This document shows, one piece after another, positions 12,621 through 53,364 of a stretch of DNA of 64,000 nucleotides (positions are counted from its first letter, which is position 1; every line of letters starts with the position of its first letter). The translations under genes were made by a program, and so were the position numbers. The DNA is from Escherichia coli (GTDB taxonomy: Bacteria > Pseudomonadota > Gammaproteobacteria > Enterobacterales > Enterobacteriaceae), in assembly GCF_024502345.1 (NCBI RefSeq), contig NZ_JALDNN010000001.1. One strand, 5' to 3'. The notes under the pieces are model-generated. The model searched no databases and had not been told where the DNA came from. It saw only the letters and a list, made by a program, of their open reading frames with translations.

Positions 12621-15038
<2,418 letters not shown>

Positions 15039-21005: not shown

Positions 21006-21884
21006 TTACTGACTCGCCGCAGCCAACTCTTCTTCTGACAGCCCGGTAAATCGCAGAACGTCCTCAAGAGGGACTCCGGCATCCAGCATGGTTTTGGCAA
21101 TAGCACGTATACCTTTCTGAAACCCCTCCTGCCGCAATCTTTCCGCAATAGTCATTAAACTCTCCTTGTGTTTCGGTGAACGTTCGGCAACGCCGTCGAT
21201 AAAATCGTTAAAACGTACCGCATCGCCGGTTTGCAAGATGTAATTAAACAGCCCTTTGATTTGTCTGTCATTAGCGTATCCACTACTTAATAAGCAGGCC
21301 ATTTGCTCTACCAGCCCCATCAGGTCGCGTTGACGAATATGTTTTTGAATTAACTCCAGCAGCGCCATACGTCGGTGCTGCATGATTTCATCATCAGGCA
21401 TGACGGTGACATCAATCAGCGGAAATGCGGAGGCATAAAGCTGCCTTGCCAGTTTGGGATTGGCGAAACAATCCAGCCAACACAGCGAATAGGGATAGGG
21501 GCTTTCAATACCGTGGTAAAACAACAATGGCACCACCATCGGCAACGTTTTGTATCCAGCATCAAGGTGATTTTGCATTGCGGCAATAGCGTAACGCATC
21601 ATGCGAAATGCGATCAGTTTGTTTGAAGTGCTTTGATGTTCAATCAGACAATAGATGTATCCTGGTCCTTGTTCTGTTTTCACCGACCACAGCACATCGG
21701 AATAGCTTTCACGCAGATCGTCATCAATAAAGCTGTTCGACTCCAGCTTGAGGGTTTTCATATCACAGAGCGCGTGAATGGGTGCCGGTAAATGAAACGC
21801 AAGAAAATCGCGTGCCGTCTCCGGTTGGCGTAAAAATAGTTTGAACAGCGCATCGTGTGGGGTGGAACTCTGCTTTTTGCTCAT
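21006..21884 (-). CDS. rpnA: recombination-promoting nuclease RpnA (transposase_31 / PD-(D/E)XK family)
   Basis: 292 aa; recognised as YhgA by sequence and position. Confidence 0.85.
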
Positions 21885-30591: not shown

Positions 30592-32214
30592 TTACAGTTT
30601 CGGACCAGCCGCTACCAGCGCGGCACCCGCAGGGGTGTCGGTGTATTTATCGAAGTTGTCGATAAACAGTTTCGCCAGGGTTTCGGCTTTTTCCTGCCAC
30701 TGTTCCGGAGAAGCGTAGGTGTTACGCGGATCGAGAATCTTCGTGTCTACGCCCGGCAGTTCGGTTGGGATCGCCAGGTTAAACATCGGCAGAGTGAAGG
30801 TTTCTGCATTATCCAGCGAACCGTTGAGGATGGCGTCGATAATGGCGCGGGTATCTTTAATCGAGATACGTTTGCCAGTGCCGTTCCAGCCAGTGTTAAC
30901 CAGATAAGCCTGCGCGCCCGCCGCCTGCATACGTTTCACCAGCACTTCTGCGTACTGAGTCGGGTGCAGCGACAGGAACGCCGCGCCGAAGCAAGCGGAG
31001 AAGGTTGGCGTCGGTTCGGTGATGCCGCGCTCTGTACCGGCCAGTTTGGCGGTGAAGCCAGAGAGGAAGTGGTACTGGGTTTGATCGGCAGTCAGACGAG
31101 AAACCGGTGGCAGCACACCAAAGGCGTCTGCGGTCAGGAAGATAACTTTCGTTGCGTGGCCCGCTTTGGAAACCGGCTTAACGATGTTATCGATGTGATA
31201 GATCGGATAAGAAACGCGGGTGTTCTCGGTTTTTGAACCATCATCAAAGTCGATAGTGCCATCTTCACGCACGGTGACGTTTTCCAGCAGCGCATCGCGA
31301 CGGATAGCGTTGTAGATTTCAGGTTCCGCTTCTTTCGACAGCTTGATGGTTTTCGCGTAGCAGCCGCCTTCGAAGTTAAACACACCGTCATCGTCCCAGC
31401 CGTGCTCGTCATCACCAATCAGGCGACGTTTCGGGTCGGTGGAAAGGGTGGTTTTACCAGTGCCGGAAAGGCCGAAGAACACCGCAACATCGCCTTTCTC
31501 ACCAACGTTGGCGGAGCAGTGCATAGAAGCGATACCTTTCAGCGGCAGCAGGTAGTTCATCATCGAGAACATCCCTTTCTTCATTTCGCCGCCGTACCAG
31601 GTGCCGCCAATCAGCTGCATGCGCTCGGTCAGGTTAAAAGCCACGAAGTTTTCGGAATTCAGACCCTGTTCTTTCCACTGCGGGTTAGTGCACTTCGCGC
31701 CGTTCATAACGATAAAGTCAGGTTTGAAACCTGCCAGCTCTTCATCGCTCGGGCGAATAAACATGTTTTTGACAAAATGCGCCTGCCAGGCCACTTCGGT
31801 GATGAAACGGACGGAAAGACGAGTATCCGGGTTCGCACCACAGAAGGCGTCGACAACGAACAGACGTTTGCCGGAAAGCTGTTTGGTCACCAGGCCTTTC
31901 AGAAGTTGCCAGGTTTCCGGAGAGAGAGGTTTGTTATCGTTCTTACCTTTGCCTTTGTCTGCCCACCAGAAAGTATCGCGAGTGGTATCGTCACGGACGA
32001 TATACTTATCTTTTGGTGAACGACCGGTGAAGATCCCGGTATCGACGGCAACGGCACCCAGATTAGTTAACACCCCGCGCTCATAACCTGTCAGGCTCGG
32101 ATCGAGCTCTTCCTGATACAGCAGGTCGTAGCTTGGGTTGTAAACGATATCATGTACGTCACTGATACCATAAGCCTCGAGTTCTTGCGGGGTCAAACCA
32201 TTGTTAACGCGCAT
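30592..32214 (-). CDS. pckA: phosphoenolpyruvate carboxykinase (ATP)
   Basis: 540 aa from [16 protein letters not shown]; kinase P-loop GLSGTGKTT; ORF track start is a 23-codon upstream extension. Confidence 0.95.
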
Positions 32215-32592
32215 TTCACTGCTCCTTAGCCAATATGTATTGCCTGAATAGTAAAGTCTTTTTGGGGGTGTTAACCGCGACAAGGCTCATAGATTTACGT
32301 ATCTGGAGAAATTCATATTTGACAAAAAACTCCGTGATTCCTGTCACGAAACGGTTGCTATTATCGCAGAAATAGCATTTTAGGTGTGGAAAATGTTCTC
32401 AAAAGGTTAAATCTTGGTTTATATGGCGGGAATATTGTGAGTGGAATCGCATTCCTGAATGAAATTGATGCAAATTCAACCGGTAAAGTATCGATTCACC
32501 ACGCTAACTTTTTTTGATTATTTTCTGAAAAAAGCAAAATACTACTGCCCGGATGCGATAATTAACCCACCTTTTGATTCTGGATAACCAAC

Positions 32593-34094
32593 ATGGATAA
32601 CGTTGAACTTTCACCCGCAACACGCTGGGGGATGATTGCTACCGGATTACTTCAGGGTCTGGTTTGCTACCTGCTGATCGTCTGGCTTTCCGGAAAAAAT
32701 CACAGTTGGATTGTTTATGGCGTGCCTGCGACCGTTGCGTTTTCATCCGTTTTACTCTTCTCCGTGATCTCTTTTAAACAGAAGCGCCTTTGGGGATGGC
32801 TGGCGCTGGTGTTTATTGCCACGCTGGGGATGAGTGGCTGGTGCTTTTACTGTGGGGCGAGTTGTTTAAACTTGTTGGCATCACGTTTTTCAAAACGCTC
32901 TTTTTTGCAACCGACTGGTTTATTTATCTCACGTTAGGTCTGGTTACCGCGCTGGCGGTGATCCTCGCGCGAACACAGTCACGTTTAATCGACTCTATTC
33001 AAAAGTTGTTCACGTTAATCGCCACGGGGTTGCTGCCGTTAGTCTCATTGCTAACCCTGATGTTTATCATCACCCTGCCGTTTACGGGCCTGAGCGCGAT
33101 TTCTCGCCACATCTCCGCCGCCGGGTTGCTGTTGACGCTGGCCTTTTTGCAATTGATCTTAATGGCTATTGTCCGCGATCCGCAAAAAGCGTCTCTTCCC
33201 TGGACGGGGCCGTTGCGTTGCCTGATTAAAACCGCTTTGCTGGTTGCTCCGCTGTATGTGTTCGTCGCCGCCTGGGCGTTATGGCTGCGGGTCGCTCAGT
33301 ACGGCTGGACTGTCGACCGCTTGCAGGGCGCGCTGGCGGTGCTGGTGTTACTGGTGTGGTCGCTGGGGTATTTTGTCAGCATTGTCTGGCGTAAAGGGCA
33401 AAATCCCCTTGTTCTTCAAGGCAAAGTGAACCTTGCGGTTTCGGTATTGGTGTTGGTGATACTGGTGCTTCTTAATTCGCCGGTGCTGGACAGTATGCGC
33501 ATTAGCGTGAACAGTCATATGGCGCGTTATCAGAGCGGTAAAAACACGCCAGACCAGGTAACTATCTACATGCTCGAACACAGCGGTCGCTATGGACGTG
33601 CGGCGCTTGAGTCGCTGAAAAGCGATGCCGAGTTTATGAAAGACCCGAAACGCTCGTGGGATCTGCTGATGGCGTTAGATGGGGAGCAAAGTCTTCAGAA
33701 GGTGGTGTCGGAAAAATCATTAGCCGAAAATGTGTTAATTGCCCCTGGTTCTGGTAAACCGGATGCGACATTCTGGTCGGCCTTAATCCAGGATCGCTAT
33801 AACGTGATGACCTGTATTGAAAAAGACGCCTGCGTACTGGTCGAGCAAGATCTGAATAGTGATGGCAGGGCAGAGCGGATCCTCTTTGCCTTTGATGATG
33901 AAAGATACATTGTCTATGGCTTTGATCCTGACAAGAAAGAATGGCAAGAGCTTACGATGAGTTTACTTCCGCGTGATATAACGAAAGAAAAATTACTCAC
34001 AGCTGCGAAGGATGGAAAACTGGGAACGAAGCCTAAAGCGTGGCGCGATCTTGTAGTGGATGGTGAAAGGCTGGGTGTGAATCTGAATGAGTGA
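32593..34094 (+). CDS. yhgE: YhgE-like polytopic inner-membrane protein; reading frame appears interrupted near 32780-32940
   Basis: two overlapping ORFs in different frames (32593-32937 and 32790-34094), both membrane-protein-like; a single uninterrupted frame is not present in this sequence. Confidence 0.55.
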
Positions 34095-34156
34095 CAAAGC
34101 GCATCAGGTGTATTAGTCGTAAAATCCGGCAGAGCCCTCTCTGCCGGACATACTCA

Positions 34157-35041
34157 TTAATGAACTTGCGGATCTGCCGGAGACGCGTTGTTGCGGATTT
34201 CAGCAATATCCATCGCATTGAACAGATAGTGGTTACCGCAGTAATCACAATGCATGTCAATTTCGCCATCTTCCGCCAGGATGCTATCGACTTCTTCATC
34301 AGGCAGCGTTTTCAGCGCATCGGCGCAACGTTCACGCGAGCAGGTGCATTTGAACTCCACATCCTGCGGATCGTAAACCGTCACCTCTTCTTCGTGATAC
34401 AAACGCCACAACACTTCGTTTGCCGGTAAGGTCAGCAGTTCTTCGGTTTTGATGGTTTCGGTTAGCGTCGCCAGGTGGTCGAAGTCGTCCTGCTGGGCAT
34501 TTTGCGCAGGCATTACCTGCAACAACATACCGCCCGCAGCCGGTTTGCCGTCTACGTCGCCGGTGCGAATAAACAGGCGCGTCGGCAGCTGTTCAGAACG
34601 CATAAAGTAATCTTCCAGGCAGGCCGCCAGGGTATCTCCTTCCAGACCCACCACGCCCTGATAGCGCTCACCTTCGCTCGGGGTAATGGTGATCACCACG
34701 TAACCATTGCCGACCAGCGTTTTCAGGTCGGCATTTTCTGGAATTTCGCCCTGCACGCGCGCCACACCGCGCATCTGCTGGTTGTTGTTACCGTTAATAA
34801 CCGCCAGATTCATCGGACCGTCGCCCTGCAGCTGTACGGTGATATCACCATCAAACTTCAGCGTAGCGGTTAACAGGCTGGTCGCAACCAGCAGTTCTGC
34901 CAGCACGTTTTTAACGGGCTGCGGATAATCGTGGTTCTCAAGGATCTGTTGCAGGGTTTCCGAAACGGTTACCAGTTCGCCGCGCACGGCAAAGTTTTCA
35001 AACAGATAGCGATGTAATTGGTCATGTTGCGGCATAATCAT
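34157..35041 (-). CDS. hslO: redox-regulated chaperone Hsp33
   Basis: C-terminal zinc centre CTCSRERC ... HCDYCGNHY. Confidence 0.94.
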
Positions 35042-35059
35042 CTCTCTTGCAGGTGACAG

Positions 35060-35461
35060 TTATTCACTGTCGCCGTGTTTAAATCGTAACAGGTCGCGGC
35101 GCTCTTTTTTGTCCGGGCGTCGGTCCGGGTGCGGCATGGTTAAGGCATTAAGTTTACGTGCCAGCGCCATTTTTTCGCGTTTCTCTACACTTTCCGCAGT
35201 CTCTTCATACAGCAAGGCAGCCTCGCTGGCGGGGCGACGCTGTTCAGTAATCGCCTTTACAATCACCGTGCGTTCGTCATTTCCCTGGCGCAGAGTGAGC
35301 GTGGCATTCAGCTCGACGATTTTGCTCGGCTTGCTGCGCTGCCCGTTGTAATGCACCTTACCGCCTTCAATCATTTCACGGGCCAGCGCGCGGGTTTTAT
35401 AAAAACGGGCAGCCCATAGCCATTTATCCAGTCGAACCTCAACAGCAGGTTTTTCTTTCAT
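35060..35461 (-). CDS. hslR: heat shock protein Hsp15 (S4-like RNA-binding, ribosome-associated)
   Basis: 133 aa; basic S4-type protein adjacent to hslO. Confidence 0.92.
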   Translation of the reverse strand: MKEKPAVEVRLDKWLWAARFYKTRALAREMIEGGKVHYNGQRSKPSKIVELNATLTLRQGNDERTVIVKAITEQRRPASEAALLYEETAESVEKREKMALARKLNALTMPHPDRRPDKKERRDLLRFKHGDSE

Positions 35462-35471
35462 GGCGTCTCCT

Positions 35472-36140
35472 TCACATTAGCGAGGGGATCAGGCGGCGGT
35501 AGTCATTCAGTGACGGATGGCGTTGATACTGTTTCTCGGCAATCCCTGAGTCAGGATTAGTCACGCCGAGGCAGTAACGAATACCAAATTGCGCGGCAGC
35601 ATCGAGAATCGCTTCGCTGTCATCAATAAACAGCGTTCTTTCAGCTTTCAGACCCGTAGCTTCGGCCACCGCATGCCATAACCGCTGATCCTCTTTCGGA
35701 TAACCAAATGTGTGGGTGGAAAGTAATAAATCAAGGTGTGCGTCCAGACCGGTATGCTCAAGTTTTACCGCCAGGTTGTGCGGATGCGCATTGGTGAGCA
35801 AAATTCGCTGCTTACCGCTGGCTTTCAGTGCCTCAAGAAACGGAATGGTATCTTCACGCAGTACGGCACGCGGTCCCATCTCGGTGGTCATCGCACAGAT
35901 ATCCAGACCCAGTTGCTCACTCCAGTAATCAAGACAGTACCAGTTTAGCGTATGCTGTACGTCGTGATATTGCTGGCGCATATATTCCATCGCTTCCTGT
36001 GGCGTAACCCCGTTTTTCGCGCCCCATGTTTCAGGCACCAGCTTTTGCCAGAAATAGTTATCGAAGGCGAGGTCGAGCAACGTGCCGTCCATATCCAGCA
36101 GAACGGTATCTACGTCCTGCCAGGCAATGTTGATATGCAT
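35472..36140 (-). CDS. yrfG: HAD-family nucleotidase/phosphatase YrfG
   Basis: 222 aa from MHINIAWQDVDTVLLDMDGTLLD (HAD motif I). Confidence 0.88.
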   Translation of the reverse strand: MHINIAWQDVDTVLLDMDGTLLDLAFDNYFWQKLVPETWGAKNGVTPQEAMEYMRQQYHDVQHTLNWYCLDYWSEQLGLDICAMTTEMGPRAVLREDTIPFLEALKASGKQRILLTNAHPHNLAVKLEHTGLDAHLDLLLSTHTFGYPKEDQRLWHAVAEATGLKAERTLFIDDSEAILDAAAQFGIRYCLGVTNPDSGIAEKQYQRHPSLNDYRRLIPSLM

Positions 36141-36204
36141 GAGGGAAATCTCCAGAGTGAAGCAATTTGCGCGACAGGGTAGCATAACCTGCCGCGCAAA
36201 CGTG

Positions 36205-38340
36205 TTATTCGATAAGGCTTTCTGAAGGGGTGATCAGTTGCGGGTTCAGGCAGCTTTCATAATAGGCCTGAATCTTCATCATGCGAGTGCGATGACGCTG
36301 GTAACGCCGCCAGGCCTGTACGCCATTGTAAATGGCGCTACCCAGCATCGTCAGTAGCAGCAGCGTGGTGCTGAGATAGCGCCACAGGCCGGAACGATCC
36401 GGGATCGGATGAAGGCCTATATGCTGCGTACCATTGGCGTTAGTGAAGATTTTTGTGACGATACCCTCGGCGTTAAACGGCGTATGCATCAGCATTTGTG
36501 CCAGTTTCTGGAAAGCGTTCCACTGTTCTTGCGGCGGGTAGTCGTAAAGTGATGCCGAAGGCCAGGGCTGATCAACAAAATCGCTGCCTTCGTCGCTGAC
36601 AATCAGGAATCCGCCGGGGGCCGGACTGTTTAGTGATTGTGCTGCTCGCGCCGTTTCATGCGTGATAAACGGCGCGGTGGAGGTTGCCACCAGGTTATCC
36701 AGCGATTCCGCACTCACCGGGCGTAATAACACATTCACGCCATCGAGCTTCCCGGCGTTGGCGCGTTTTACCAGCGCGTCCCAGTCTTTACTGTTGCCGA
36801 GATTGACCAGCGCATTTTTCAGTCGCACACAGTCATCTTTGGCAGAACACAGATCCGCTGTCTTCAGTACAATGTCGCCAAAATCATCAAGCAATACCAT
36901 GCCGGATTTTTGAATCGCTGAACGTAATGAGGCACTGACGCGAGATTCATCTTCCGGTTTAGGGTGCAGCTGGCGATTAACTGCTTCAGTCAATGCCGTC
37001 GCTTTGTTGACCAGCTCAGATTCTGGTAATGGTAATGAGCGGGCGTCATTCCAGATGATCTGCGAGCAGTCAAACGGTAAAAAAGGTGAATTGGTTTTCG
37101 CGCTCCAGGTTCCGGAAGTGCGAATATTACACATTCCCGTACCGCTAATACGCAATGTATCGCCTACCCGCACGCCAGCGTCAGCCAGTTGTTTTACGCT
37201 GGTGGCTTCAATGGTCTGCGCGCCTTTCATCCATGAGAGAGTGAATTTCAGCGGCATATCCAGCGGGATCCAGAATAACAGCATAAACAGCACCAGCAGC
37301 GAGCCCGCAGCGATAATCGTACTGCGCAGCCAGTGCTGTAACGGAAAGTTTTTTACTTCATCATGCAGCGAAAGATATCGTCCCTGACGCACTACATGGC
37401 GGTCGAGATAGATATCGATATCGGTTTGTTGACCGAGATCCTGAGCAATGTATGGCTGCCAGTGTGCGGGATAGACCAGGTCGATAATACCGAGTGAAAT
37501 ATTGTTGATCTGTTCCTGATCGTTTTCGCCAAACAATCCCCAACGACGGGGTGTACCGCGCAGACAATGAATTTCCCGCAGGGAGGATTTTGCCGGGGGG
37601 GCGAATAGCCCCCACAGACCTGCGCCCAGCAGCAGTAATGCGCCGCCTGCCAGCCACGGAACAAATACATCCGGGGTAATCAGGCAGAAAAAGAACATCA
37701 GAAAGGAGGCGACGATCAGCAACGCTTCACGCAGCCCGCGCGGACGACTCAGCGCATACTCTTCATGCGTTTCTTTGCGAATATTGAGTAGCTCGATTTG
37801 CTCACTCTCTTCCCCGCGAATCGACGCCTGCGTGGACGGAACAGGTTGCAAGGCATAGCCGCGCGTTTCCTGCATGTACTCCTGCAGCGTATGACCGTTG
37901 AGTGAAATAACCAACGGCAGCGAATCGGTATGAATCAGTTCAACGGTATTCTCATCGTTGATGTACTGTTCCCAGAAGGGGGGCAGGTGGACTTCTACCG
38001 AATCGAGGTAGTAACGCCATTTATTCGGATCGTCGGTAGAGATGCCGTAACGTGTGATAGCGTGTGTCAGCATCATGACGTTGTTGCTTTCGGCATTCAG
38101 CGCCAGAGAGATCGGTGCCGCGCTGGCTCCCGTTGGGCCAGGCACCTGTAATACCTGCGTCAGGCTCTCAAGATAATTTTCAACGGCGCTACGTTCTTCA
38201 GGTGTGAGTTTACGCGTTTGCGCATCCGCGAAGGCGTTGGTCCAGGGCAGCTGACGCCGTCTGGATCGCACTTTTATCAGCCATCCCGCAAGTAGTGAGC
38301 AGGCCAGCAAAGCAGCTAAAAAAATCACAATGGTGCTCAT
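36205..38340 (-). CDS. igaA: inner-membrane repressor of the Rcs phosphorelay IgaA (YrfF)
   Basis: 711 aa; N-terminal TM segment, large membrane protein; position next to yrfG and nudE. Confidence 0.9.
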   Translation of the reverse strand: MSTIVIFLAALLACSLLAGWLIKVRSRRRQLPWTNAFADAQTRKLTPEERSAVENYLESLTQVLQVPGPTGASAAPISLALNAESNNVMMLTHAITRYGISTDDPNKWRYYLDSVEVHLPPFWEQYINDENTVELIHTDSLPLVISLNGHTLQEYMQETRGYALQPVPSTQASIRGEESEQIELLNIRKETHEEYALSRPRGLREALLIVASFLMFFFCLITPDVFVPWLAGGALLLLGAGLWGLFAPPAKSSLREIHCLRGTPRRWGLFGENDQEQINNISLGIIDLVYPAHWQPYIAQDLGQQTDIDIYLDRHVVRQGRYLSLHDEVKNFPLQHWLRSTIIAAGSLLVLFMLLFWIPLDMPLKFTLSWMKGAQTIEATSVKQLADAGVRVGDTLRISGTGMCNIRTSGTWSAKTNSPFLPFDCSQIIWNDARSLPLPESELVNKATALTEAVNRQLHPKPEDESRVSASLRSAIQKSGMVLLDDFGDIVLKTADLCSAKDDCVRLKNALVNLGNSKDWDALVKRANAGKLDGVNVLLRPVSAESLDNLVATSTAPFITHETARAAQSLNSPAPGGFLIVSDEGSDFVDQPWPSASLYDYPPQEQWNAFQKLAQMLMHTPFNAEGIVTKIFTNANGTQHIGLHPIPDRSGLWRYLSTTLLLLTMLGSAIYNGVQAWRRYQRHRTRMMKIQAYYESCLNPQLITPSESLIE

Positions 38341-38659
38341 GCTTTCCCCATCTTACTTAGTCTGTCAGGCGTGGTCAGTCGCACCGGACACAATACATGA
38401 TTCTGCGGTTGGCTATCGGCAAGCGTGGAGTTTAACTTGAGCATCATTAAGCACATCACAGTAACCGCTGATCATAGCAAACCCTCTGAAGGCGGAATAT
38501 CAGCAAATTCCTGGAGTTATTTCAACCTATTGACTTTTAATTTGATTTGAGGACGATTATTTATTAAGTTACATAAATGTAAATAACATGCAATTCACAT
38601 TGCCGAAAGCGTGTCCGATATCGCACAATAACCGCTGATTTCACAGCATAGATCCCACG

Positions 38660-39220
38660 ATGAGCAAATCATTACAAAAACCCACCATTCTGAATGTTGA
38701 AACTGTAGCCCGTTCCCGACTGTTTACCGTCGAGAGCGTGGGTCTGGAGTTCAGCAATGGCGTGCGGCGTGTTTATGAACGAATGCGTCCAACCAACCGG
38801 GAAGCAGTGATGATTGTGCCGATTGTGGACGATCACCTGATCCTGATCCGCGAATACGCAGTGGGAACTGAATCCTACGAATTAGGTTTTTCGAAAGGAT
38901 TAATTGATCCGGGTGAAAGCGTCTACGAAGCCGCTAACCGCGAGCTAAAAGAAGAGGTTGGATTTGGTGCGAACGATCTGACTTTTTTGAAGAAGCTCAG
39001 CATGGCACCGTCTTACTTTTCCAGCAAAATGAATATCGTGGTAGCGCAAGATCTCTACCCGGAATCGCTGGAAGGCGATGAGCCAGAGCCGCTACCACAG
39101 GTGCGCTGGCCGCTGGCGCATATGATGGATTTGCTGGAAGACCCTGACTTCAACGAAGCGCGTAATGTCAGCGCGCTGTTCCTCGTGCGCGAATGGTTGA
39201 AAGGGCAGGGGCGAGTGTAA
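38660..39220 (+). CDS. nudE: ADP-sugar / adenosine nucleotide hydrolase, Nudix family
   Basis: 186 aa; Nudix box GLIDPGESVYEAANRELKEEVGF. Confidence 0.93.
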   Translation: MSKSLQKPTILNVETVARSRLFTVESVGLEFSNGVRRVYERMRPTNREAVMIVPIVDDHLILIREYAVGTESYELGFSKGLIDPGESVYEAANRELKEEVGFGANDLTFLKKLSMAPSYFSSKMNIVVAQDLYPESLEGDEPEPLPQVRWPLAHMMDLLEDPDFNEARNVSALFLVREWLKGQGRV

Positions 39221-39233
39221 ATGCGTGAAGTTT

Positions 39234-39330
39234 GCCTGATGCACAACGCTTATCAGGCTTATGGGATTCCTGCAATATATTGAGTTTTCACGATTTTGTT
39301 AGCCGGATAACGCGTTCACCCGTATCCGGC
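39234..39330. repeat. two REP-like palindromic units (39234-39258 and 39302-39330) between nudE and mrcA
   Basis: GCCTGATGC...TTATCAGGC and GCCGGATAACGCG...CCGGC read directly. Confidence 0.55.
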
Positions 39331-39361
39331 ATAAACAAGTGCACTTTGTCAGCAAACTGAA

Positions 39362-39379
39362 AAGGCGCCGAAGCGCCTT
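39362..39379. terminator. bidirectional terminator hairpin (AGGCGCC-GAA-GCGCCT with flanking T/A runs) at the 3' end of mrcA
   Basis: stem-loop with T-runs on both strands. Confidence 0.55.
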
Positions 39380-39384
39380 TTTAA

Positions 39385-41961
39385 TCAGAACAATTCCTGT
39401 GCCTCGCCATTATCGATAATGGTCGTTCCCACCTCGTGCACCGCCTGTTGTGTCGGCTGCGTACCTTCGATGAAATACTCTTCGCGGCTGTTGCCACCAT
39501 TAGCTAACTGCCCGGTGCTGCGATCGATTTTCACCGTCACAATACCTGGCGGCGGCGTCAGCGGCTGCTCCGGCACACCTTCAAGAACGGCTTTCATATA
39601 AGCGTCCCATGCAGGCTGGGCGCTCTTGGCACCGCCTTCGTAACCTGATATCTGATCTTTAATCGCTCCGGAAGCCGTTGTATGACCGAGATTACGACGG
39701 TGATCATCAAAGCCAATCCAGACCGAGGTCACAACGCCCGGACCGTAACCCGAGAACCACGCATCTTTCGAACTGTTAGTGGTACCGGTTTTCCCGCCGA
39801 TATCGCGACGCTGCAAATCACGACCTGCACGCCAGCCGGTACCCTGCCAGCCTGGCTCACCAAAGATATTGGTGTTCAAAGCACTCTTAATCAGGAATGC
39901 CAGCGGAGTGTTGATGACGTGCGGTGCGTACTCCTGCGCGCCAGTCTTCGCCACTAACGCCTGATTTGCCTGCTCCAGCTGCGGCATTGGTACAGAAACA
40001 TTCTGCTGCTCGCGGGAGATAGCGACATCTTCAACATCGTTATTTTCCAGCACGTTCGATTTCTGCGTATCACCGTAAATCACTGGAATATCGCATTCCG
40101 GGCAGGCTACTTTCGGTTTCGCTTCGAAAATCACGCCGCCCTGATCGTTTTCAATTTTGCTGATAAACCACGGGTCCACCAGGAAGCCGCCGTTCGCCAT
40201 GACCGCGTAGCCGCGCGCCACCTGCATTGGGGTGAAGGACGCTGAACCCAGCGCCAGCGATTCGGTGTGGACAATGTTTTGCGCCGGGAAGCCGAAGCGT
40301 TGCAGATATTCTGCAGCGTAGTCGACGCCCATCGCTCGCATTGCGCGTACCATCACCACGTTTTTCGACTGACCCAGCCCCTGACGTAAGCGAATTGGAC
40401 CGGCATACTGCGGTGGTGAGTTTTTCGGCTGCCAGTCAGAACCGGCACCTGCGTCCCAGCGAGAAATTGGCACATCGTTCAACATACTTGCCAGCGTCAG
40501 ACCTTTATCCATCGCCGCGGTGTAGAGGAACGGTTTGATGTTGGAACCCACCTGACGCAGTGCCTGGGTGGCGCGGTTAAACTTGCTCTGATTGAAATCA
40601 AAGCCACCGACCAGCGCCATAACGGCACCATTTTGCGGATTGATCGACACCAGTGCCGAGTTCACTTCCGGCACTTGTGCCAGCCACCATGCATCGCCAA
40701 CCTGACGAACCCAGATTTGCTGGCCCGTTTGCAGAACATCGGTCACTTTACGCGGCGTCGGTCCCTGCTGAGTATCCGAACGGTAAGGACGCGCCCAGCG
40801 AACGCCTTCCATACTCAATGCGACGGTCGACCCGTCCGCCAGCATTGCCGTCGCTTCCTGAGGATTGGCGCTGGTGACTGCGGCAGGCAGCAGCGGACCA
40901 TAGGTCGGCAGCGCCTTCAGCGTATCGGTAATCTTGTTGTTATCCCACGCCGACTCGCCCACTTTCCACAGCACATTTGCCGGGCCGCGATAGCCGTGGC
41001 GCATGTCGTAGTCCAGCACGTTATTACGTACCGCCTGCTGTGCGGCCTGCTGCACTTTGCGGGTGATGGTGGTGTAAATGCGATAACCGTCTTCATAGGC
41101 ACTTTCGCCATAACGGTTATACATCTCCTGGCGCACCATTTCGCTCAGGTACGGCGCAGAAAAAGCAATCTCCGGCGCGTGATAGTTAGCGTTAATCGCC
41201 TCAGTGCGTGTCTGATCGAACTGTTGTTGGGTGATATACCCTTCATCCAGCATCCGCGACAGTACGACGTTACGCCGCGCGACGGCACGATCCATTGAGT
41301 AGAGCGGATTAAAGGTGGAAGGCGCTTTCGGCAGCCCGGCGATCACAGCCATTTCGTTCAGCGTCAGTTGGTCGACCGTTTTACCGAAATAGACTTGTGC
41401 CGCAGCACCGACACCATAGGCGCGGTAACCAAGGTAAATCTTGTTCAGATAAAGCTCGAGGATCTCGTCTTTCGTCAGCAACTGTTCAATGCGAATCGCG
41501 AGGAAGACTTCCTTAATCTTACGCATCAGCGTGCGTTCTGGACTGAGGAAGAAATTTCTCGCCAGCTGCTGGGTAATGGTACTCGCCCCTTGTGACGCGT
41601 GGCCGGAGAACAGCGCCACACTTGCCGCACGGAAGATCCCCACCGGGTCAACGCCGTGATGCTCGTAGAAGCGGCTGTCTTCCGTCGCGATAAAGGCTTT
41701 CACCATCTCTGGCGGGATTTGATCCAGCGTAACCGGAATACGACGTTTCTCACCGTATTGAGCAATCAGCTCGCCATCGGCGCTGTAAATCTGCATCGGA
41801 ATTTGCAGGCGAACATCTTTTAATGTCGCCACATCCGGCAGTTGTGGCTCGATGTAGCGGTATAGGCCATAAATCGAGCCTGCTCCCAGCAGAATGCAAC
41901 AGACTGCAAGGATCAAAAAATACTTTACGAACTTCACTGGAAATTTCCCATTTAGTTTCAT
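39385..41961 (-). CDS. mrcA: penicillin-binding protein 1A (bifunctional glycosyltransferase/transpeptidase)
   Basis: transglycosylase motif EDSRFYEHHG, transpeptidase SxxK region; annotated K-12 start probably 8 codons downstream (GTG at 41937, 850 aa). Confidence 0.94.
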   Translation of the reverse strand: MKLNGKFPVKFVKYFLILAVCCILLGAGSIYGLYRYIEPQLPDVATLKDVRLQIPMQIYSADGELIAQYGEKRRIPVTLDQIPPEMVKAFIATEDSRFYEHHGVDPVGIFRAASVALFSGHASQGASTITQQLARNFFLSPERTLMRKIKEVFLAIRIEQLLTKDEILELYLNKIYLGYRAYGVGAAAQVYFGKTVDQLTLNEMAVIAGLPKAPSTFNPLYSMDRAVARRNVVLSRMLDEGYITQQQFDQTRTEAINANYHAPEIAFSAPYLSEMVRQEMYNRYGESAYEDGYRIYTTITRKVQQAAQQAVRNNVLDYDMRHGYRGPANVLWKVGESAWDNNKITDTLKALPTYGPLLPAAVTSANPQEATAMLADGSTVALSMEGVRWARPYRSDTQQGPTPRKVTDVLQTGQQIWVRQVGDAWWLAQVPEVNSALVSINPQNGAVMALVGGFDFNQSKFNRATQALRQVGSNIKPFLYTAAMDKGLTLASMLNDVPISRWDAGAGSDWQPKNSPPQYAGPIRLRQGLGQSKNVVMVRAMRAMGVDYAAEYLQRFGFPAQNIVHTESLALGSASFTPMQVARGYAVMANGGFLVDPWFISKIENDQGGVIFEAKPKVACPECDIPVIYGDTQKSNVLENNDVEDVAISREQQNVSVPMPQLEQANQALVAKTGAQEYAPHVINTPLAFLIKSALNTNIFGEPGWQGTGWRAGRDLQRRDIGGKTGTTNSSKDAWFSGYGPGVVTSVWIGFDDHRRNLGHTTASGAIKDQISGYEGGAKSAQPAWDAYMKAVLEGVPEQPLTPPPGIVTVKIDRSTGQLANGGNSREEYFIEGTQPTQQAVHEVGTTIIDNGEAQELF

Positions 41962-42056
41962 TTGGGCAGTTTATAAACAAACGCGCGGTAGTATAAAGGC
42001 AAGCCAGACGCATTGATATACCCGTCAGAGTGACGGGTGATAAGGAGATCATCACA

Positions 42057-42836
42057 ATGGCATTTAAGATCTGGCAAATTGGTTTGCATTTACAACAGCA
42101 AGAAGCGGTAGCGGTTGCTATCGTGCGGGGCGCAAAAGAATGCTTTTTGCAACGCTGGTGGCGGTTGCCGCTGGCGCACGACATTATCAAAGATGGGCGG
42201 ATTGTTGATGCGCAGCGGCTGGCTAAAACGTTGTTACCGTGGAGTCGCGAACTGCCGCAGCGCCATCACATCATGTTGGCATTTCCCGCCAGTCGCACAT
42301 TACAGCGGTCATTTCCGCGCCCGTCGATGTCCCTCGGTGAGCGGGAGCAAACGGCCTGGCTGTCCGGGACGATGGCTCGCGAGCTGGATATGGATCCGGA
42401 CTCCCTGCGCTTCGATTACAGCGAAGACTCACTCAGTCCCGCCTATAACGTGACTGCCGCGCAAAGCAAAGAGCTGGCAACGCTGCTTACTCTGGCAGAA
42501 AGGTTGCGTGTTCATGTTAGTGCGATCACCCCGGATGCCAGTGCATTACAGCGATTCCTGCCTTTTTTACCTTCTCATCAGCAATGTCTGGCCTGGCGTG
42601 ATAACGAACAGTGGCTGTGGGCGACACGCTATCGCTGGGGGCGCAAACTGGCGGTGGGGATGACTAGCGCGAAGGAGCTGGCGGCAGCGTTATCCGTTGA
42701 TCCCGAAAGCGTCGCGATATGTGGCGAAGGCGGATTTGATCCCTGGGAGGCCGTTTCTGTTCGTCAGCCGCCGCTACCGCCGCCTGGTGGAGACTTTGCC
42801 ATCGCGCTGGGGCTGGCGCTTGGGAAGGCGTACTGA
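42057..42836 (+). CDS. hofM: type IV pilus / DNA-uptake assembly protein HofM (PilM-like)
   Basis: 259 aa from MAFKIWQIG; first gene of hofMNOPQ. Confidence 0.85.
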   Translation: MAFKIWQIGLHLQQQEAVAVAIVRGAKECFLQRWWRLPLAHDIIKDGRIVDAQRLAKTLLPWSRELPQRHHIMLAFPASRTLQRSFPRPSMSLGEREQTAWLSGTMARELDMDPDSLRFDYSEDSLSPAYNVTAAQSKELATLLTLAERLRVHVSAITPDASALQRFLPFLPSHQQCLAWRDNEQWLWATRYRWGRKLAVGMTSAKELAAALSVDPESVAICGEGGFDPWEAVSVRQPPLPPPGGDFAIALGLALGKAY

Positions 42837-43375
42837 TGAACCCGCCAATTAATTTTTTGCCCTGGCGACAGCAACGCCGGACCGCTTTTCTTCGTTTCTG
42901 GTTGCTGATGTTCGTTGCGCCTCTGCTGCTGGCCGTCGGGATAACGCTAATACTGCGTCTGACAAGCAGCGCCGAAGCGCGCATAGACGCCGTTTTGCTT
43001 CAGGCGGAACAACAACTCGCCCGCAGCTTACAGATAACGAAACCACGTTTGCTGGAGCGCCAACAAATTCGTGAGCAGCGTTTGCAAAGGCAGCGCCAGC
43101 GACAATTTACCCGCGACTGGCAATCTGCGCTGGAAGCACTGGCGGCGCTTTTACCCGAGCACGCCTGGCTGACAACGATAAGCTGGCAGCAGGGAACGCT
43201 GGAGATCAAGGGGCTGACAACAAGCATTACCGCGTTAAACGCACTAGAAATGTCACTCCGCCAGGATGCGTCTTTTCATCTCAATCAGCGGGGAGCCACG
43301 CAGCAGGATGCGCAGGGACGCTGGCAATTTGAGTATCAGTTAACAAGGAAGGTTAGCGATGAACATGTTCTTTGA
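42836..43375 (+). CDS. hofN: HofN (PilN-like)
   Basis: 179 aa; single N-terminal TM; start overlaps the hofM stop. Confidence 0.85.
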   Translation: MNPPINFLPWRQQRRTAFLRFWLLMFVAPLLLAVGITLILRLTSSAEARIDAVLLQAEQQLARSLQITKPRLLERQQIREQRLQRQRQRQFTRDWQSALEALAALLPEHAWLTTISWQQGTLEIKGLTTSITALNALEMSLRQDASFHLNQRGATQQDAQGRWQFEYQLTRKVSDEHVL

Positions 43376-43799
43376 CTGGTGGTTCGCCACATCACCCCGC
43401 CTCCGCCAGCTTTGCTGGGCAGTCTGGTTGCTGATGTTAGTTACGCTCATTTTTCTATCATCGACACACCATGAAGAGCGCGACGCATTAATTCGACTAC
43501 GGGCAAGTCATCACCAGCAGTGGGCCGCACTGTATCGCCTGGTAGACACCACTCCCTTCAGCGAGGAAAAAACGCTGCCCTTTTCGCCACTGGATTTTCA
43601 GTTATCCGGCGCGCAACTGGTTTCCTGGCATCCATCCGCGCAGGGAGGCGAGTTGGCGTTGAAAACGCTGTGGGAAGCAGTGCCGTCGGCATTTACACGG
43701 CTGGCAGAGCGCAACGTCAGCGTGAGCCGTTTTTCGTTAAGCGTGGAAGGTGATGATCTTTTGTTCACGCTACAACTGGAGACGCCGCATGAGGGTTAA
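43359..43799 (+). CDS. hofO: HofO (PilO-like)
   Basis: 146 aa; overlaps hofN by 17 nt. Confidence 0.8.
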   Translation: MNMFFDWWFATSPRLRQLCWAVWLLMLVTLIFLSSTHHEERDALIRLRASHHQQWAALYRLVDTTPFSEEKTLPFSPLDFQLSGAQLVSWHPSAQGGELALKTLWEAVPSAFTRLAERNVSVSRFSLSVEGDDLLFTLQLETPHEG

Positions 43800-44193
43800 A
43801 CGCTGGTTGTTGGCAGGTATTGCATTGTGCCTTTTAACCGGTATGCGTGACCCTTTTAAACCGCCGGAAGATCTATGCCGGATTAGCGAACTTAGCCAGT
43901 GGCGCTATCAGGGGATGGTAGGGCGAGGCGAACGCATCATCGGTGTAATAAAAGACGGGCAAAAGAAATGGCGACGGGTGCAGCAAAACGATGTGCTGGA
44001 AAACGGCTGGACAATTTTACAGCTGACGCCAGACGTACTAACGCTGGGTACCGGGACAAACTGCGAACCGCCACAATGGTTGTGGCAACGGCAAGGAGAT
44101 ACAAATGAAGCAATGGATAGCCGCACTACTGTTGATGCTGATACCCGGCGTACAGGCGGCAAAGCCGCAAAAAGTGACGCTGATGGTGGATGA
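43789..44193 (+). CDS. hofP: HofP (PilP-like lipoprotein)
   Basis: 134 aa from MRVKRWLLAGIALCLLTG (lipoprotein-like signal); overlaps hofO by 11 nt. Confidence 0.8.
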   Translation: MRVKRWLLAGIALCLLTGMRDPFKPPEDLCRISELSQWRYQGMVGRGERIIGVIKDGQKKWRRVQQNDVLENGWTILQLTPDVLTLGTGTNCEPPQWLWQRQGDTNEAMDSRTTVDADTRRTGGKAAKSDADGG

Positions 44194-45343
44194 CGTTCCG
44201 GTAGCTCAGGTGTTGCAGGCGCTGGCTGAACAGGAGAAGTTGAACCTGGTGGTGTCGCCAGACGTCAGCGGTACGGTGTCGTTACATCTAACAGATGTTC
44301 CCTGGAAGCAGGCACTACAAACTGTAGTGAAAAGCGCCGGACTGATAACGCGCCAGGAGGGCAACATTCTCTCGGTGCATTCCGTTGCCTGGCAGAATGA
44401 CAATATCGCCCGTCAGGAGGCGGAGCAGGCGCGGGCGCAGGCAAATCTGCCGCTGGAAAATCGCAATATTACTCTGCAATACGCCGACGCCGGAGAGCTG
44501 GCGAAAGCGGGGGAGAAGCTACTGAGTGCCAAAGGGAGTATGACCGTCGATAAACGCACCAATCGCCTTTTGCTGCGAGATAACAAAACGGCGTTAAGCG
44601 CGCTTGAACAATGGGTAGCGCAAATGGATCTGCCGGTCGGGCAGGTTGAGCTGTCGGCGCATATTGTCACCATTAATGAAAAAAGTTTGCGTGAGTTAGG
44701 CGTGAAATGGACGCTGGCCGATGCGCAACACGCTGGTGGCGTTGGGCAAGTCACCACGCTTGGTAGCGACCTCTCCGTAGCGACGGCGACAACGCATGTC
44801 GGTTTTAACATTGGGCGCATCAACGGACGCTTGCTGGATCTTGAGCTTTCCGCGCTCGAACAAAAACAGCAGCTGGATATTATCGCCAGTCCGCGTCTGC
44901 TGGCCTCACATCTTCAGCCTGCCAGCATTAAACAGGGGAGCGAAATTCCATATCAGGTTTCCAGCGGGGAAAGTGGCGCGACGTCGGTGGAATTTAAAGA
45001 GGCCGTCCTGGGGATGGAGGTCACGCCCACGGTGTTACAAAAAGGTCGCATCCGGCTGAAATTACACATCAGCCAGAACGTTCCGGGGCAGGTGCTACAG
45101 CAGGCCGATGGCGAAGTGCTGGCGATTGATAAGCAGGAGATCGAAACGCAGGTCGAGGTCAAAAGCGGAGAAACGTTGGCGCTGGGCGGCATTTTTACCC
45201 GTAAAAATAAATCGGGTCAGGATAGCGTACCGTTGCTTGGCGACATTCCCTGGTTCGGGCAATTATTTCGTCATGACGGAAAAGAAGATGAACGACGCGA
45301 GTTAGTGGTGTTTATCACGCCACGACTGGTTTCCAGTGAGTAA
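44105..45343 (+). CDS. hofQ: outer-membrane secretin HofQ (DNA uptake pore)
   Basis: 412 aa; signal peptide; secretin C-terminal domain (VPLLGDIPWFGQLF). Confidence 0.92.
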   Translation: MKQWIAALLLMLIPGVQAAKPQKVTLMVDDVPVAQVLQALAEQEKLNLVVSPDVSGTVSLHLTDVPWKQALQTVVKSAGLITRQEGNILSVHSVAWQNDNIARQEAEQARAQANLPLENRNITLQYADAGELAKAGEKLLSAKGSMTVDKRTNRLLLRDNKTALSALEQWVAQMDLPVGQVELSAHIVTINEKSLRELGVKWTLADAQHAGGVGQVTTLGSDLSVATATTHVGFNIGRINGRLLDLELSALEQKQQLDIIASPRLLASHLQPASIKQGSEIPYQVSSGESGATSVEFKEAVLGMEVTPTVLQKGRIRLKLHISQNVPGQVLQQADGEVLAIDKQEIETQVEVKSGETLALGGIFTRKNKSGQDSVPLLGDIPWFGQLFRHDGKEDERRELVVFITPRLVSSE

Positions 45344-45743
45344 ACAGCCGTAAAAGCGGTAATGTTTTTATGCTGAACGTGTTTCATCTATTTGACGCGC
45401 GCAGGTATTTAGCATACAAGGAGTACCGATTTGAGAGTTGGTGCTCTTCGCTGCCTGCGTTCCATGATGATGATTTATCATTCAGGCGGCATTTTGCTGT
45501 CTTTTTTACGCTAATCTTACCCGGTGATTTATCGCCAGAGCGGTGGTAGCAAGGCAGCGCGCTTGCAGCGACCAGATATGCAGAGGGATGGGTGATTTAT
45601 TCAGTTGCCAAACCCGCTGGAGTATTGAGATAATTTTCAGTCTGACTCTCGCAATATCTTATGAGGTTTCAGTTCATGTCCTGCGGCGCTCTCTGAGCGA
45701 AGCGGGTTTATCATTAACGAATAGTCTTAGTAGTACCGAAAAA

Positions 45744-46265
45744 ATGGCAGAGAAACGCAATATCTTTCTGGTTGGGCCTATGGGTGCCGGAAAAAGCACT
45801 ATTGGGCGCCAGTTAGCTCAACAACTCAATATGGAATTTTACGATTCCGATCAAGAGATTGAGAAACGAACCGGAGCTGATGTGGGCTGGGTTTTCGATT
45901 TAGAAGGCGAAGAAGGCTTCCGCGATCGCGAAGAAAAGGTCATCAATGAGTTGACCGAGAAACAGGGTATTGTGCTGGCTACTGGCGGCGGCTCTGTGAA
46001 ATCCCGTGAAACGCGTAACCGTCTTTCCGCTCGTGGCGTTGTCGTTTATCTTGAAACGACCATCGAAAAGCAACTTGCACGCACGCAGCGTGATAAAAAA
46101 CGCCCGTTGCTGCACGTTGAAACACCGCCGCGTGAAGTTCTGGAAGCGTTGGCCAATGAACGCAATCCGCTGTATGAAGAGATTGCCGACGTGACCATTC
46201 GTACTGATGATCAAAGCGCTAAAGTGGTTGCAAACCAGATTATTCACATGCTGGAAAGCAACTAA
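45744..46265 (+). CDS. aroK: shikimate kinase I
   Basis: 173 aa from [19 protein letters not shown] (Walker A); ORF track start is a 67-codon upstream extension. Confidence 0.95.
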
Positions 46266-46321
46266 TTCTGGCTTTATATACACTCGTCTGCGGGTACAGT
46301 AATTAAGGTGGATGTCGCGTT

Positions 46322-47410
46322 ATGGAGAGGATTGTCGTTACTCTCGGGGAACGTAGTTACCCAATTACCATCGCATCTGGTTTGTTTAATGAACCAGCTT
46401 CATTCTTACCGCTGAAATCGGGCGAGCAGGTCATGTTGGTCACCAACGAAACCCTGGCTCCTCTGTATCTCGATAAGGTCCGCGGCGTACTTGAACAGGC
46501 GGGTGTTAACGTCGATAGCGTTACCCTCCCTGACGGCGAGCAGTATAAAAGCCTGGCTGTACTCGATACCGTCTTTACGGCGTTGTTACAAAAGCCGCAT
46601 GGTCGCGATACTACGCTGGTGGCGCTTGGCGGCGGCGTAGTGGGCGATCTGACCGGCTTCGCGGCGGCGAGTTATCAGCGCGGTGTTCGTTTCATTCAAG
46701 TCCCGACGACGTTACTGTCGCAGGTCGATTCCTCCGTTGGCGGCAAAACTGCGGTCAACCATCCCCTCGGTAAAAACATGATTGGCGCGTTCTACCAGCC
46801 TGCTTCAGTGGTGGTGGATCTCGACTGTCTGAAAACGCTTCCCCCGCGTGAGTTAGCGTCGGGGCTGGCAGAAGTCATCAAATACGGCATTATTCTTGAC
46901 GGTGCGTTTTTTAACTGGCTGGAAGAGAATCTGGATGCGTTGTTGCGTCTGGACGGTCCGGCAATGGCGTACTGTATTCGCCGTTGTTGTGAACTGAAGT
47001 CAGAAGTTGTCGCCGCCGACGAGCGCGAAACCGGGTTACGTGCTTTACTGAATCTGGGACACACCTTTGGTCATGCCATTGAAGCTGAAATGGGGTATGG
47101 CAATTGGTTACATGGTGAAGCGGTCGCTGCGGGTATGGTGATGGCGGCGCGGACGTCGGAACGTCTCGGGCAGTTTAGTTCTGCCGAAACGCAGCGTATT
47201 ATAACCCTGCTCACGCGGGCTGGGTTACCGGTCAATGGGCCGCGCGAAATGTCCGCGCAGGCGTATTTACCGCATATGCTGCGTGACAAGAAAGTCCTTG
47301 CGGGAGAGATGCGCTTAATTCTTCCGTTGGCAATTGGTAAGAGTGAAGTTCGCAGCGGCGTTTCGCACGAGCTTGTTCTTAACGCCATTGCCGATTGTCA
47401 ATCAGCGTAA
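46322..47410 (+). CDS. aroB: 3-dehydroquinate synthase
   Basis: 362 aa; NAD-binding GGGVVGD. Confidence 0.95.
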
Positions 47411-47501
47411 CAACAAGAAAGGTCAGGCCGCTTATCAAGCGGTCTATTAGCTTCAGGTTAATTGCAACGTGGTAAGCATTAACCTTTTAGTGGGGTGTTA
47501 A

Positions 47502-48788
47502 ATGGATGAATTCAAACCAGAAGACGAGCTGAAACCCGATCCCAGCGATCGTCGTACTGGTCGTTCTCGTCAATCTTCTGAACGTTCTGAGCGTACTGAA
47601 CGTGGCGAACCGCAGATCAATTTTGATGATATTGAACTTGATGACACTGACGATCGCCGTCCGACTCGTGCGCAAAAAGAGCGCAATGAGGAACCGGAAA
47701 TCGAAGAAGAAATTGACGAATCCGAAGATGAAACCGTGGATGAAGAGCGCGTAGAGCGTCGTCCGCGTAAGCGCAAAAAAGCAGCCAGTAAACCCGCTTC
47801 TCGTCAGTATATGATGATGGGCGTCGGCATTCTGGTTCTACTGCTGTTGATCATCGGTATCGGTTCTGCGCTAAAAGCCCCCTCGACCACTTCCAGCGAT
47901 CAAACCGCGTCTGGCGAGAAGAGTATTGATCTTGCTGGCAATGCGACCGATCAGGCGAATGGCGTGCAGCCAGCGCCGGGAACCACGTCTGCGGAAAATA
48001 CTCAGCAGGATGTTTCTCTGCCACCGATCTCTTCTACGCCGACTCAAGGGCAAACCCCGGCGGCAACGGATGGTCAACAACGTGTTGAAGTGCAGGGTGA
48101 CCTGAACAATGCGCTGACCCAGCCACAAAATCAGCAACAGTTGAACAATGTGGCGGTCAATTCCACATTGCCGACCGAACCCGCGACTGTCGCGCCTGTT
48201 CGCAATGGCAATGCATCCCGTGAAACGGCGAAAACGCAAACCGCTGAACGTCCGGCCACTACGCGTCCAGCTCGCCAGCAGGCAGTGATTGAACCGAAAA
48301 AACCGCAAGCAACCGTGAAAACGGAGCCGAAGCCGGTAGCACAGACGCCGAAGCGTACTGAACCAGCTGCCCCTGTGGCGAGCACGAAGGCACCGGCTGC
48401 GACTTCTACGCCAGCACCAAAAGAGACGGCGACTACGGCTCCAGTACAGACGGCATCCCCGGCGCAAACCACGGCAACACCAGCCGCTGGAGGGAAGACC
48501 GCAGGTAATGTTGGTTCGTTGAAATCGGCACCGTCCAGCCATTACACTCTGCAGCTGAGCAGTTCCTCTAACTACGACAACCTGAACGGTTGGGCGAAGA
48601 AAGAGAATCTGAAAAACTACGTTGTCTATGAAACGACGCGTAATGGTCAGCCGTGGTATGTCCTGGTTTCTGGCGTGTACGCTTCGAAAGAAGAGGCGAA
48701 AAAAGCGGTATCTACATTGCCAGCAGATGTTCAGGCCAAAAACCCGTGGGCGAAACCGCTGCGTCAGGTACAGGCCGATCTGAAGTAA
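47502..48788 (+). CDS. damX: cell-division protein DamX (SPOR domain)
   Basis: 428 aa; acidic N-terminus, single TM, long P/T/A/Q-rich low-complexity linker, C-terminal SPOR domain. Confidence 0.93.
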
Positions 48789-48894
48789 TCAAGGTTATCT
48801 CCCGCAATGGTTTATCGTTGCGGGAGTTGCCTGAAGCGCTGGATGCTGTCGGAGCTTTCTCCACAGCCGGAGAAGGTGTAATTAGTTAGTCAGC

Positions 48895-49731
48895 ATGAAG
48901 AAAAATCGCGCTTTTTTGAAGTGGGCAGGGGGCAAGTATCCCCTGCTTGATGATATTAAACGGCATTTGCCCAAGGGCGAATGTCTGGTTGAGCCTTTTG
49001 TAGGTGCCGGGTCGGTGTTTCTCAACACCGACTTTTCTCGTTATATCCTTGCCGATATCAATAGCGACCTGATCAGTCTCTATAACATTGTGAAGATGCG
49101 TACTGATGAGTACGTACAGGCCGCACGCGAGCTGTTTGTTCCCGAAACAAATTGCGCCGAGGTTTACTATCAGTTCCGCGAAGAGTTCAACAAAAGCCAG
49201 GATCCGTTCCGTCGGGCGGTACTGTTTTTATATTTGAACCGCTACGGTTACAACGGCCTGTGTCGTTACAATCTGCGCGGTGAGTTTAACGTGCCGTTTG
49301 GCCGCTACAAAAAACCCTATTTCCCGGAAGCAGAGTTGTATCACTTCGCTGAAAAAGCGCAGAATGCCTTTTTCTATTGTGAGTCTTACGCCGATAGCAT
49401 GGCGCGCGCAGATGATGCATCCGTCGTCTATTGCGATCCGCCTTATGCACCGCTGTCTGCGACCGCCAACTTTACGGCGTATCACACAAACAGTTTTACG
49501 CTTGAACAACAAGCGCATCTGGCGGAGATCGCCGAAGGTCTGGTTGATCGCCATATTCCTGTGCTGATCTCCAATCACGATACGATGTTAACGCGTGAGT
49601 GGTATCAGCGCGCAAAATTGCATGTCGTCAAAGTTCGACGCAGTATAAGCAGCAACGGCGGCACACGTAAAAAGGTGGACGAACTGCTGGCTTTGTACAA
49701 ACCAGGAGTCGTTTCACCCGCGAAAAAATAA
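48895..49731 (+). CDS. dam: DNA adenine methyltransferase (GATC)
   Basis: 278 aa; catalytic DPPY motif (VYCDPPYAP). Confidence 0.96.
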
Positions 49732-49748
49732 TTCTCAAGGAGAAGCGG

Positions 49749-52174: not shown

Positions 52175-52189
52175 TATCAAAACGCTCGG

Positions 52190-52232
52190 ACGGTCCCCTC
52201 GCCCCTTTGGGGAGAGGGTTAGGGTGAGGGGA
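52190..52232. repeat. 43-bp GC-rich palindromic repeat unit (copy 1 of 2 identical direct copies)
   Basis: ACGGTCCCCTCGCCCCTTTGGGGAGAGGGTTAGGGTGAGGGGA, identical to 59897-59939; resembles the boxC class of enterobacterial intergenic repeats (class name from memory, unverified). Confidence 0.8.
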
Positions 52233-52300
52233 GCAGGGAAGCGCCAGTGGGAATTACCCTTTGCTCGCATTGTCGAATAAATCACTTCGTCATCACTCTG

Positions 52301-52327
52301 AAACCGGGGAAACCCGGTTTTTTTATC
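52301..52327 (+). terminator. rho-independent terminator of the trpS operon (AAACCGGGGAAACCCGGTTT + T-run)
   Basis: perfect stem-loop followed by TTTTTTT. Confidence 0.75.
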
Positions 52328-52442
52328 CTCATTTGCAATAATCCGAAAAAATGTGAAGCGCCTCGCCGTTTCCACATCTCACAGTTGCCACTTATCTTCA
52401 TTTTAATGAAGATATAAACATTCATTTTATTGAAAATATATT

Positions 52443-53348: not shown

Positions 53349-53364
53349 ACGAAAGGCATCTGAT

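Follow-up and report, generated by a model that had tools for sequence, protein, structure and literature searches.

A rare Escherichia coli yhgE allele, very probably null, with a 223-bp deletion between short direct repeats

The window analyzed here is a 64,000-nucleotide stretch of an E. coli contig, and its middle part holds the interval pckA (minus strand), yhgE (plus strand) and hslO (minus strand). Where a single yhgE gene would lie, the list of open reading frames (ORFs) gives two overlapping plus-strand ORFs in different frames. The features of the interval are as follows.

30592-32283, minus strand: pckA (ORF list).
32593..32937, plus strand: ORF A, 114 aa, with an ATG start and a TAG at 32935-32937 (ORF list and translation).
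32790-34094, plus strand: downstream ORF, 434 aa if read from TTG 32790 and 432 aa from ATG 32796 (ORF list).
34157-35041, minus strand: hslO (ORF list).

ORF coordinates, stops and span lengths are deterministic properties of the sequence and not statistical ones. Read directly from the sequence, the downstream frame has a TAA at 32775-32777, is open from 32778 to a stop at 34092-34094, and has TTG 32790 and ATG 32796 as its first start codons. An earlier note on this DNA had described a frame break at the 5' end of yhgE, and both frames with their stops and starts are as it gave them. It had also seen three plausible transmembrane helices in the N-terminal part, and a Kyte-Doolittle scan of ORF A finds three hydrophobic 19-residue segments there (14-32, 40-58 and ~66-88).

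Alignment of the window to the intact yhgE of strain 504239 and of K-12 identified the lesion as a 223-bp deletion with its junction at 32834/32835. The window has one clean gap of 223 nt and is nearly identical elsewhere; with the gap placed, the alignment covers 1,502 of the 1,725 positions, 97.9% of them identical in strain 504239 and 95.7% in K-12. Because 223 = 3 x 74 + 1, the deletion takes out 74 codons and adds a frame offset of +1, and a simple frame correction therefore does not restore the length. The gene is annotated as “DUF4153 domain-containing protein” in strain 504239 (1,725 nt, 574 aa) and as “putative transport protein YhgE” in K-12 (b3402, 1,725 nt), and it measures 1,725 nt in strain BDSF8-3 as well. 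Orthology to b3402 is indicated by the gene order envZ-pckA-yhgE-hslO-hslR-yrfG, which is that of K-12, together with the 95.7% identity over 1,502 nt.

We compared positions 32400-34200 with all 5,426 complete RefSeq E. coli genomes by megablast. Matches covering at least 80% of the query were found in 5,424 of them, with a best identity of only 98.1%, and the gene under these matches is yhgE. Among the matches listed, all consist of two pieces that span 2,024 bp, compared to 1,801 bp in the window. A 42-mer across the junction was present in none of the 5,426 genomes.

These results settle several points of the earlier note. Its placement of a frameshift somewhere in 32778-32937 was right, as the junction lies within that range, while the 1-2 nt indel that it proposed is replaced by a 223-bp deletion; the single 223-nt gap in the alignment rules out so small an indel. 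The length of about 574 aa that it gave for intact YhgE is that of the strain 504239 protein and agrees with the 1,725 nt of K-12 b3402. Its remark that this sequence could not encode 574 aa even after frame correction also stands, since 32593-34094 is 1502 nt, or 1725 minus 223. The note had named one observation that would overturn its view, namely a reference gene with the same sequence and a single start at about 32790/32796. The matches listed span 2,024 bp instead, and the annotated gene is 1,725 nt where examined.

The broken gene can be divided into the following parts.

32593..32834, plus strand: 5' portion of yhgE left in the native frame (reference nt 1-242, that is, codons 1-80 and two bases of codon 81), with hydrophobic segments 1-3.
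32834..32842, plus strand: deletion junction, where a 9-bp direct repeat (imperfect in intact alleles) survives as the one copy GTGGCTGGT, with the break at 32834/32835.
32835..32937, plus strand: tail of ORF A past the junction, in the wrong frame; GGC TGG at 32836-32841 still encodes native G82 W83, and 31 non-native residues follow from 32842.
32835..34094, plus strand: 3' portion of yhgE, read in the native frame (reference codons 156-574 and the stop; 419 native codons).
32790..32834, plus strand: spurious 5' extension of the downstream ORF, in which the 5' gene part is read out of frame.

Both ends of the deleted segment lie in a short direct repeat. GCGGCTGGT marks the left endpoint in intact alleles and GTGGCTGGT the right one, exactly 223 bp apart (reference nt ~242-250 and 465-473). 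The repeat, G[C/T]GGCTGGT, matches at 8 of 9 positions and contains a perfect 7-bp core, GGCTGGT. In context, the left endpoint of intact alleles reads GATGA-GCGGCTGGT-TGAAG (K-12: GCGGCTGGC) and the right one TTGAC-GTGGCTGGT-GCTTT, and the window at 32829-32847 reads GATGA-GTGGCTGGT-GCTTT, with the one remaining copy at 32834-32842. Over longer stretches, intact alleles carry the endpoint sequences GAGCGGCTGGT and ACGTGGCTGGT, and the window retains the single GAGTGGCTGGT; the 30-nt sequence across the junction is GGGGATGAGTGGCTGGTGCTTTTACTGTGG. One repeat copy and the intervening 214 bp are thus missing, and mobile-element sequence is not involved. The 64-kb window was scanned for signs of a mobile element or RNA gene, but tRNA and tmRNA genes are absent and Rfam gave nothing at the gathering threshold.

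Loss of one repeat copy together with the intervening DNA is the textbook mark of slipped-mispairing or microhomology-mediated deletion, and spontaneous deletions between short direct repeats are classic in lacI of E. coli, where they are ascribed to replication slippage. The yhgE lesion has the same features: its endpoints fall in two short repeats, their spacing equals the deletion length, one copy is kept and the other lost, and there is no mobile element. In light of this established knowledge, the deletion most likely arose by one of these routes. Slipped-strand mispairing during replication, or another form of microhomology-mediated illegitimate recombination, between the 9-bp repeats would have deleted one copy and all DNA between the copies, leaving the gene 223 bp shorter.

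One detail sets this junction apart from other short-repeat deletions. At the mismatched position, the base that survives is the T of the right-hand copy, which means either an exchange at the repeat's left edge or a parental allele that differed. Slippage within the perfect 7-bp core GGCTGGT alone would not be sufficient to retain this T. Either pairing continued through the one mismatched position, or codon 81 of the parental allele was a synonymous AGT; no such allele was matched among the 5,426 complete E. coli genomes.

The deletion removes approximately residues 82-155 of the 574-aa YhgE, within the DUF4153 domain. In a hydropathy scan, the intact protein has ~11 hydrophobic segments and ends in a soluble C-terminal region of ~200 aa; transmembrane segment 4 (100-118) lies in the deleted stretch, as does most of segment 5 (142-160). 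A ribosome starting at the native ATG (32593) would read 83 native residues, G82 and W83 still being native because the repeat re-encodes both, then 31 out-of-frame residues up to the TAG at 32935-32937. The 3' part (32835-34094) contains no further stops or indels and is without a native start codon; gene callers report it as a 432-aa “gene” as a result of the out-of-frame extension at 32790..32834.

The intact protein covers positions 2-372 of the Pfam profile DUF4153 (PF13687) with a score of 110 bits, while the 432-aa ORF covers only positions 113-372 of 373 (76.8 bits, cut-off 27). No Pfam family reaches threshold for ORF A, and an NCBIfam scan of the intact and broken products returned no family. 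The window allele resembles YhgE/DUF4153 inner-membrane proteins in its pckA-yhgE-hslO synteny, its 96-98% nucleotide identity and its DUF4153 match above the gathering score; it differs from them in lacking residues ~82-155 and a continuous ORF, so that the complete domain is not found in one reading frame. The frame is disrupted relative to intact orthologues, conserved sequence is lost, and a stop occurs prematurely at 32935, as expected of a pseudogene. We consider it very probable that the yhgE of the window is a genuine, rare null allele produced by the 223-bp direct-repeat deletion, with loss of function predicted from the sequence of the broken gene.

Gene callers also predict the 3' ORF as a gene in its own right, and it is conceivable, although very unlikely, that yhgE has been split without being inactivated. 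The downstream ORF would then be translated from an internal start, giving 432 aa from ATG 32796 or a shorter product from GTG 32841 or TTG 32862. An N-terminally truncated YhgE with approximately six transmembrane segments and the C-terminal soluble domain would result, and some function would be kept. In favor of this reading, the 3' frame is uninterrupted for 1,260 nt, its dN/dS does not exceed that between intact alleles, and DUF4153 is still matched with 76.8 bits (threshold 27). That all 419 codons are perfectly open is also the outcome predicted by continued selection on a truncated product, but an open 3' frame is equally expected after a recent deletion. Moreover, no Shine-Dalgarno-like motif occurs at a usable spacing before 32796, where a GGGG directly abuts the ATG, and the only other candidate is a weak GGGGA located 10 nt before GTG 32841. 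Every candidate start also lies inside the translated ORF A, and the first third of DUF4153 (profile positions 1-112) is missing from any such product.

Programmed frameshifting, which the earlier note had listed as its least likely option, found no support and is extremely improbable. Under this reading, a -1 shift in the frame overlap would produce a fused YhgE of 500 aa without residues ~84-158. The arrangement does share features with the programmed -1 frameshifting of dnaX and IS3-family transposases: two overlapping frames are related by -1, the shift needed to pass from frame A to frame B, and heptamers of the form X XXY YYZ occur in the overlap, in phase with frame A after the junction (T TTA AAC at 32865-32871 and T TTT TTG at 32901-32907). 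A further point in favor is that the sequence following the second heptamer is folded slightly more stably than its shuffled counterparts (z = -2.07). However, both heptamers are unchanged in the two intact alleles compared (strain 504239 and K-12), in which they fall out of phase within one ordinary ORF and could not serve this purpose; they were thus there before the deletion, and shifting is not what they were selected for. Downstream of T TTA AAC the fold is unremarkable (z = +0.47), neither structure is convincing as a stimulator, and UUUAAAC is, to our knowledge, inefficient as a shift site in E. coli. Unlike in the dnaX and IS3-family systems, the two-frame arrangement is not conserved in homologues: the matches listed among the 5,424 genomes keep the extra 223 bp, the junction occurs in 0/5,426, and no intact relative needs a shift. 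The allele is also rare and probably young. We judge the heptamers to be a coincidence in a T-rich membrane-protein gene, and the null allele remains our preferred reading of the two frames.

The distribution of the junction indicates whether the deletion is real. The 30-nt junction is present at the loci of all four other data sets in which we recovered the allele, which come from three sources.

NCBI assembly GCA_050022275.1, contig JBAOKM010000007.1: 100% identical to the window over 7.3 kb, and probably the origin of the window or clonal to it.
Logan assembly of run SRR24000611: 100% identical to the window over 5.6 kb.
ENA gut metagenome assembly ERZ28657917: 1 SNP relative to the window, at 33044.
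ENA gut metagenome assembly ERZ27268145: 25 SNPs relative to the window, all inside pckA at 30979-31459.

The exact 432-aa and 114-aa products are both found in a collection of 15 billion proteins, in which the 114-aa product is recorded in one ENA metagenome contig. A search of JGI metagenome contigs with a 24-nt junction sequence gave zero matches. GCA_050022275.1 and SRR24000611 may derive from the same isolate as the window, and strictly independent support therefore comes from the two ENA metagenome assemblies. These two loci differ from the window by SNPs and are therefore not copies of one assembly.

A sequencing or assembly error, another of the options raised earlier, is thus contradicted by the occurrence of the same junction in independent assemblies. 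In its specific form, this explanation holds that the strain has an intact yhgE and that the 223-bp gap comes from mis-assembly across a short repeat. The endpoints are indeed short repeats, and the junction was found in no complete genome and no JGI metagenome, but a 9-bp repeat is far too short for assembly collapse, and the identical junction appears in four other public assemblies from different samples and assemblers, two of them with SNPs. This combination of samples, assemblers and SNPs rules out an assembly artefact, to which we assign next to no probability, and the deletion allele is a genuine, circulating and rare one. Of the three options in the earlier note, a real strain-specific pseudogene is the one supported. 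The reverse polarity, with the short form ancestral and the 223 bp inserted in other E. coli, is vanishingly improbable: nothing beyond the formal symmetry of an indel favors it, with the extra segment there is one ORF of 574 codons, the segment fits conserved DUF4153 profile positions, the matches listed all span the extra 223 bp, and the junction is in 0/5,426 complete genomes. As the lost piece is part of the conserved DUF4153 domain, it was the window allele that lost sequence, not the other strains that gained it.

In one of the metagenome loci (ERZ27268145, contig k141_46626), which has the same junction, the 25 SNPs are clustered in ~480 bp of pckA and the rest is identical to the window. 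The cluster represents either a recombination tract beside the deletion allele or a strain-chimeric metagenome assembly.

The surroundings of yhgE are unremarkable. More than 40 flanking genes were checked, from gntX through frlB, and all are full length and without gaps, at 94-100% protein identity; the region is therefore not generally degraded or poorly assembled. Positions 19418-64000 of the window are collinear with a complete genome, the closest collinear one being that of BDSF8-3; apart from the deletion in yhgE and a small indel between yhgE and hslO, no rearrangement separates them. The first 19.5 kb of the window form an ordinary glpD-rtcR-malT-malPQ region.

Three smaller differences in the region were also seen. 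The yhgE-hslO spacer (34074-34098) is ~72 bp longer in BDSF8-3 (14901-14997 of the extracted locus, L007) than in the window and strain 504239, and a small repetitive extragenic element, present in some of these strains only, may account for the difference. The gene rpnA (21006-21884, minus strand) is an intact 292-aa ORF in the window and is annotated as a pseudogene with an internal stop in BDSF8-3. Several of the complete genomes nearest to the window (NZ_CP104613.1 is one) match the 19.9-kb stretch 34100-54000 in two pieces spanning ~25.8 kb, which implies that ~5.9 kb is present there and absent in the window, or the reverse arrangement.

Sequence divergence gives an indication of the age of the lesion. 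The dN/dS ratio is 0.31 between the window allele and the nearest intact allele and 0.32 between two intact alleles, and there is thus no dN/dS signal of relaxed selection after inactivation. This unchanged ratio, together with the lack of extra stops or indels, suggests that the deletion is probably recent, with no sign of long decay.

The gene itself is more divergent than its neighbors. The YhgE protein is 90.9% identical to the BDSF8-3 allele, compared to 98-100% for most flanking genes between 19491 and 63527, and best nucleotide identity to the 5,426 complete genomes is only 98.1% in the yhgE region, compared to 99.0-99.5% in the flanks. Touchon et al. (2009; PMC2617782) include YhgE in a group of membrane-protein loci described as hotspots of phylogenetic incongruence, which they put down to diversifying selection on membrane proteins, and the divergence of yhgE seen here fits such a hotspot.

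A published case of yhgE loss comes from the laboratory. Loss of the yhgE start codon arose in a laboratory-evolved, ampicillin-tolerant K-12 population (PMC7394356), from which it follows that the gene is dispensable. Taken together with the incongruence hotspot and the occurrence of the allele in gut metagenomes on two pckA backgrounds, this start-codon loss raises the possibility that losing yhgE is adaptive rather than neutral, and that the deletion allele might be spreading by recombination for that reason. Still less likely, low-level -1 slippage at T TTA AAC (32865-32871) could yield a shortened fusion protein; even jointly, these two possibilities are very unlikely. If the loss were adaptive, the gain might be evasion of phages or colicins, or higher antibiotic tolerance. 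A literature search on the function of E. coli YhgE or DUF4153 found nothing functional, and most papers that mention “yhgE” concern unrelated Gram-positive genes with the same name.

The yhgE of the window is an ordinary strain-specific pseudogene, and not a sequencing error or a recoding signal. Like other such pseudogenes of non-essential E. coli core genes, it has a single lesion in a dispensable gene with syntenic, intact surroundings; it is unusual in nothing, and it is rare (0/5,426 complete genomes). For annotation, the locus should be given as one yhgE pseudogene at 32593-34094, and not as the two genes (114 and 432 aa) that automatic callers produce. Beyond correct annotation the importance of the finding is small. 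The 24-30-nt junction could mark the lineage of a rare E. coli allele. The allele would be a further natural knockout of this conserved membrane protein and, as such, would confirm that yhgE is dispensable in the wild.
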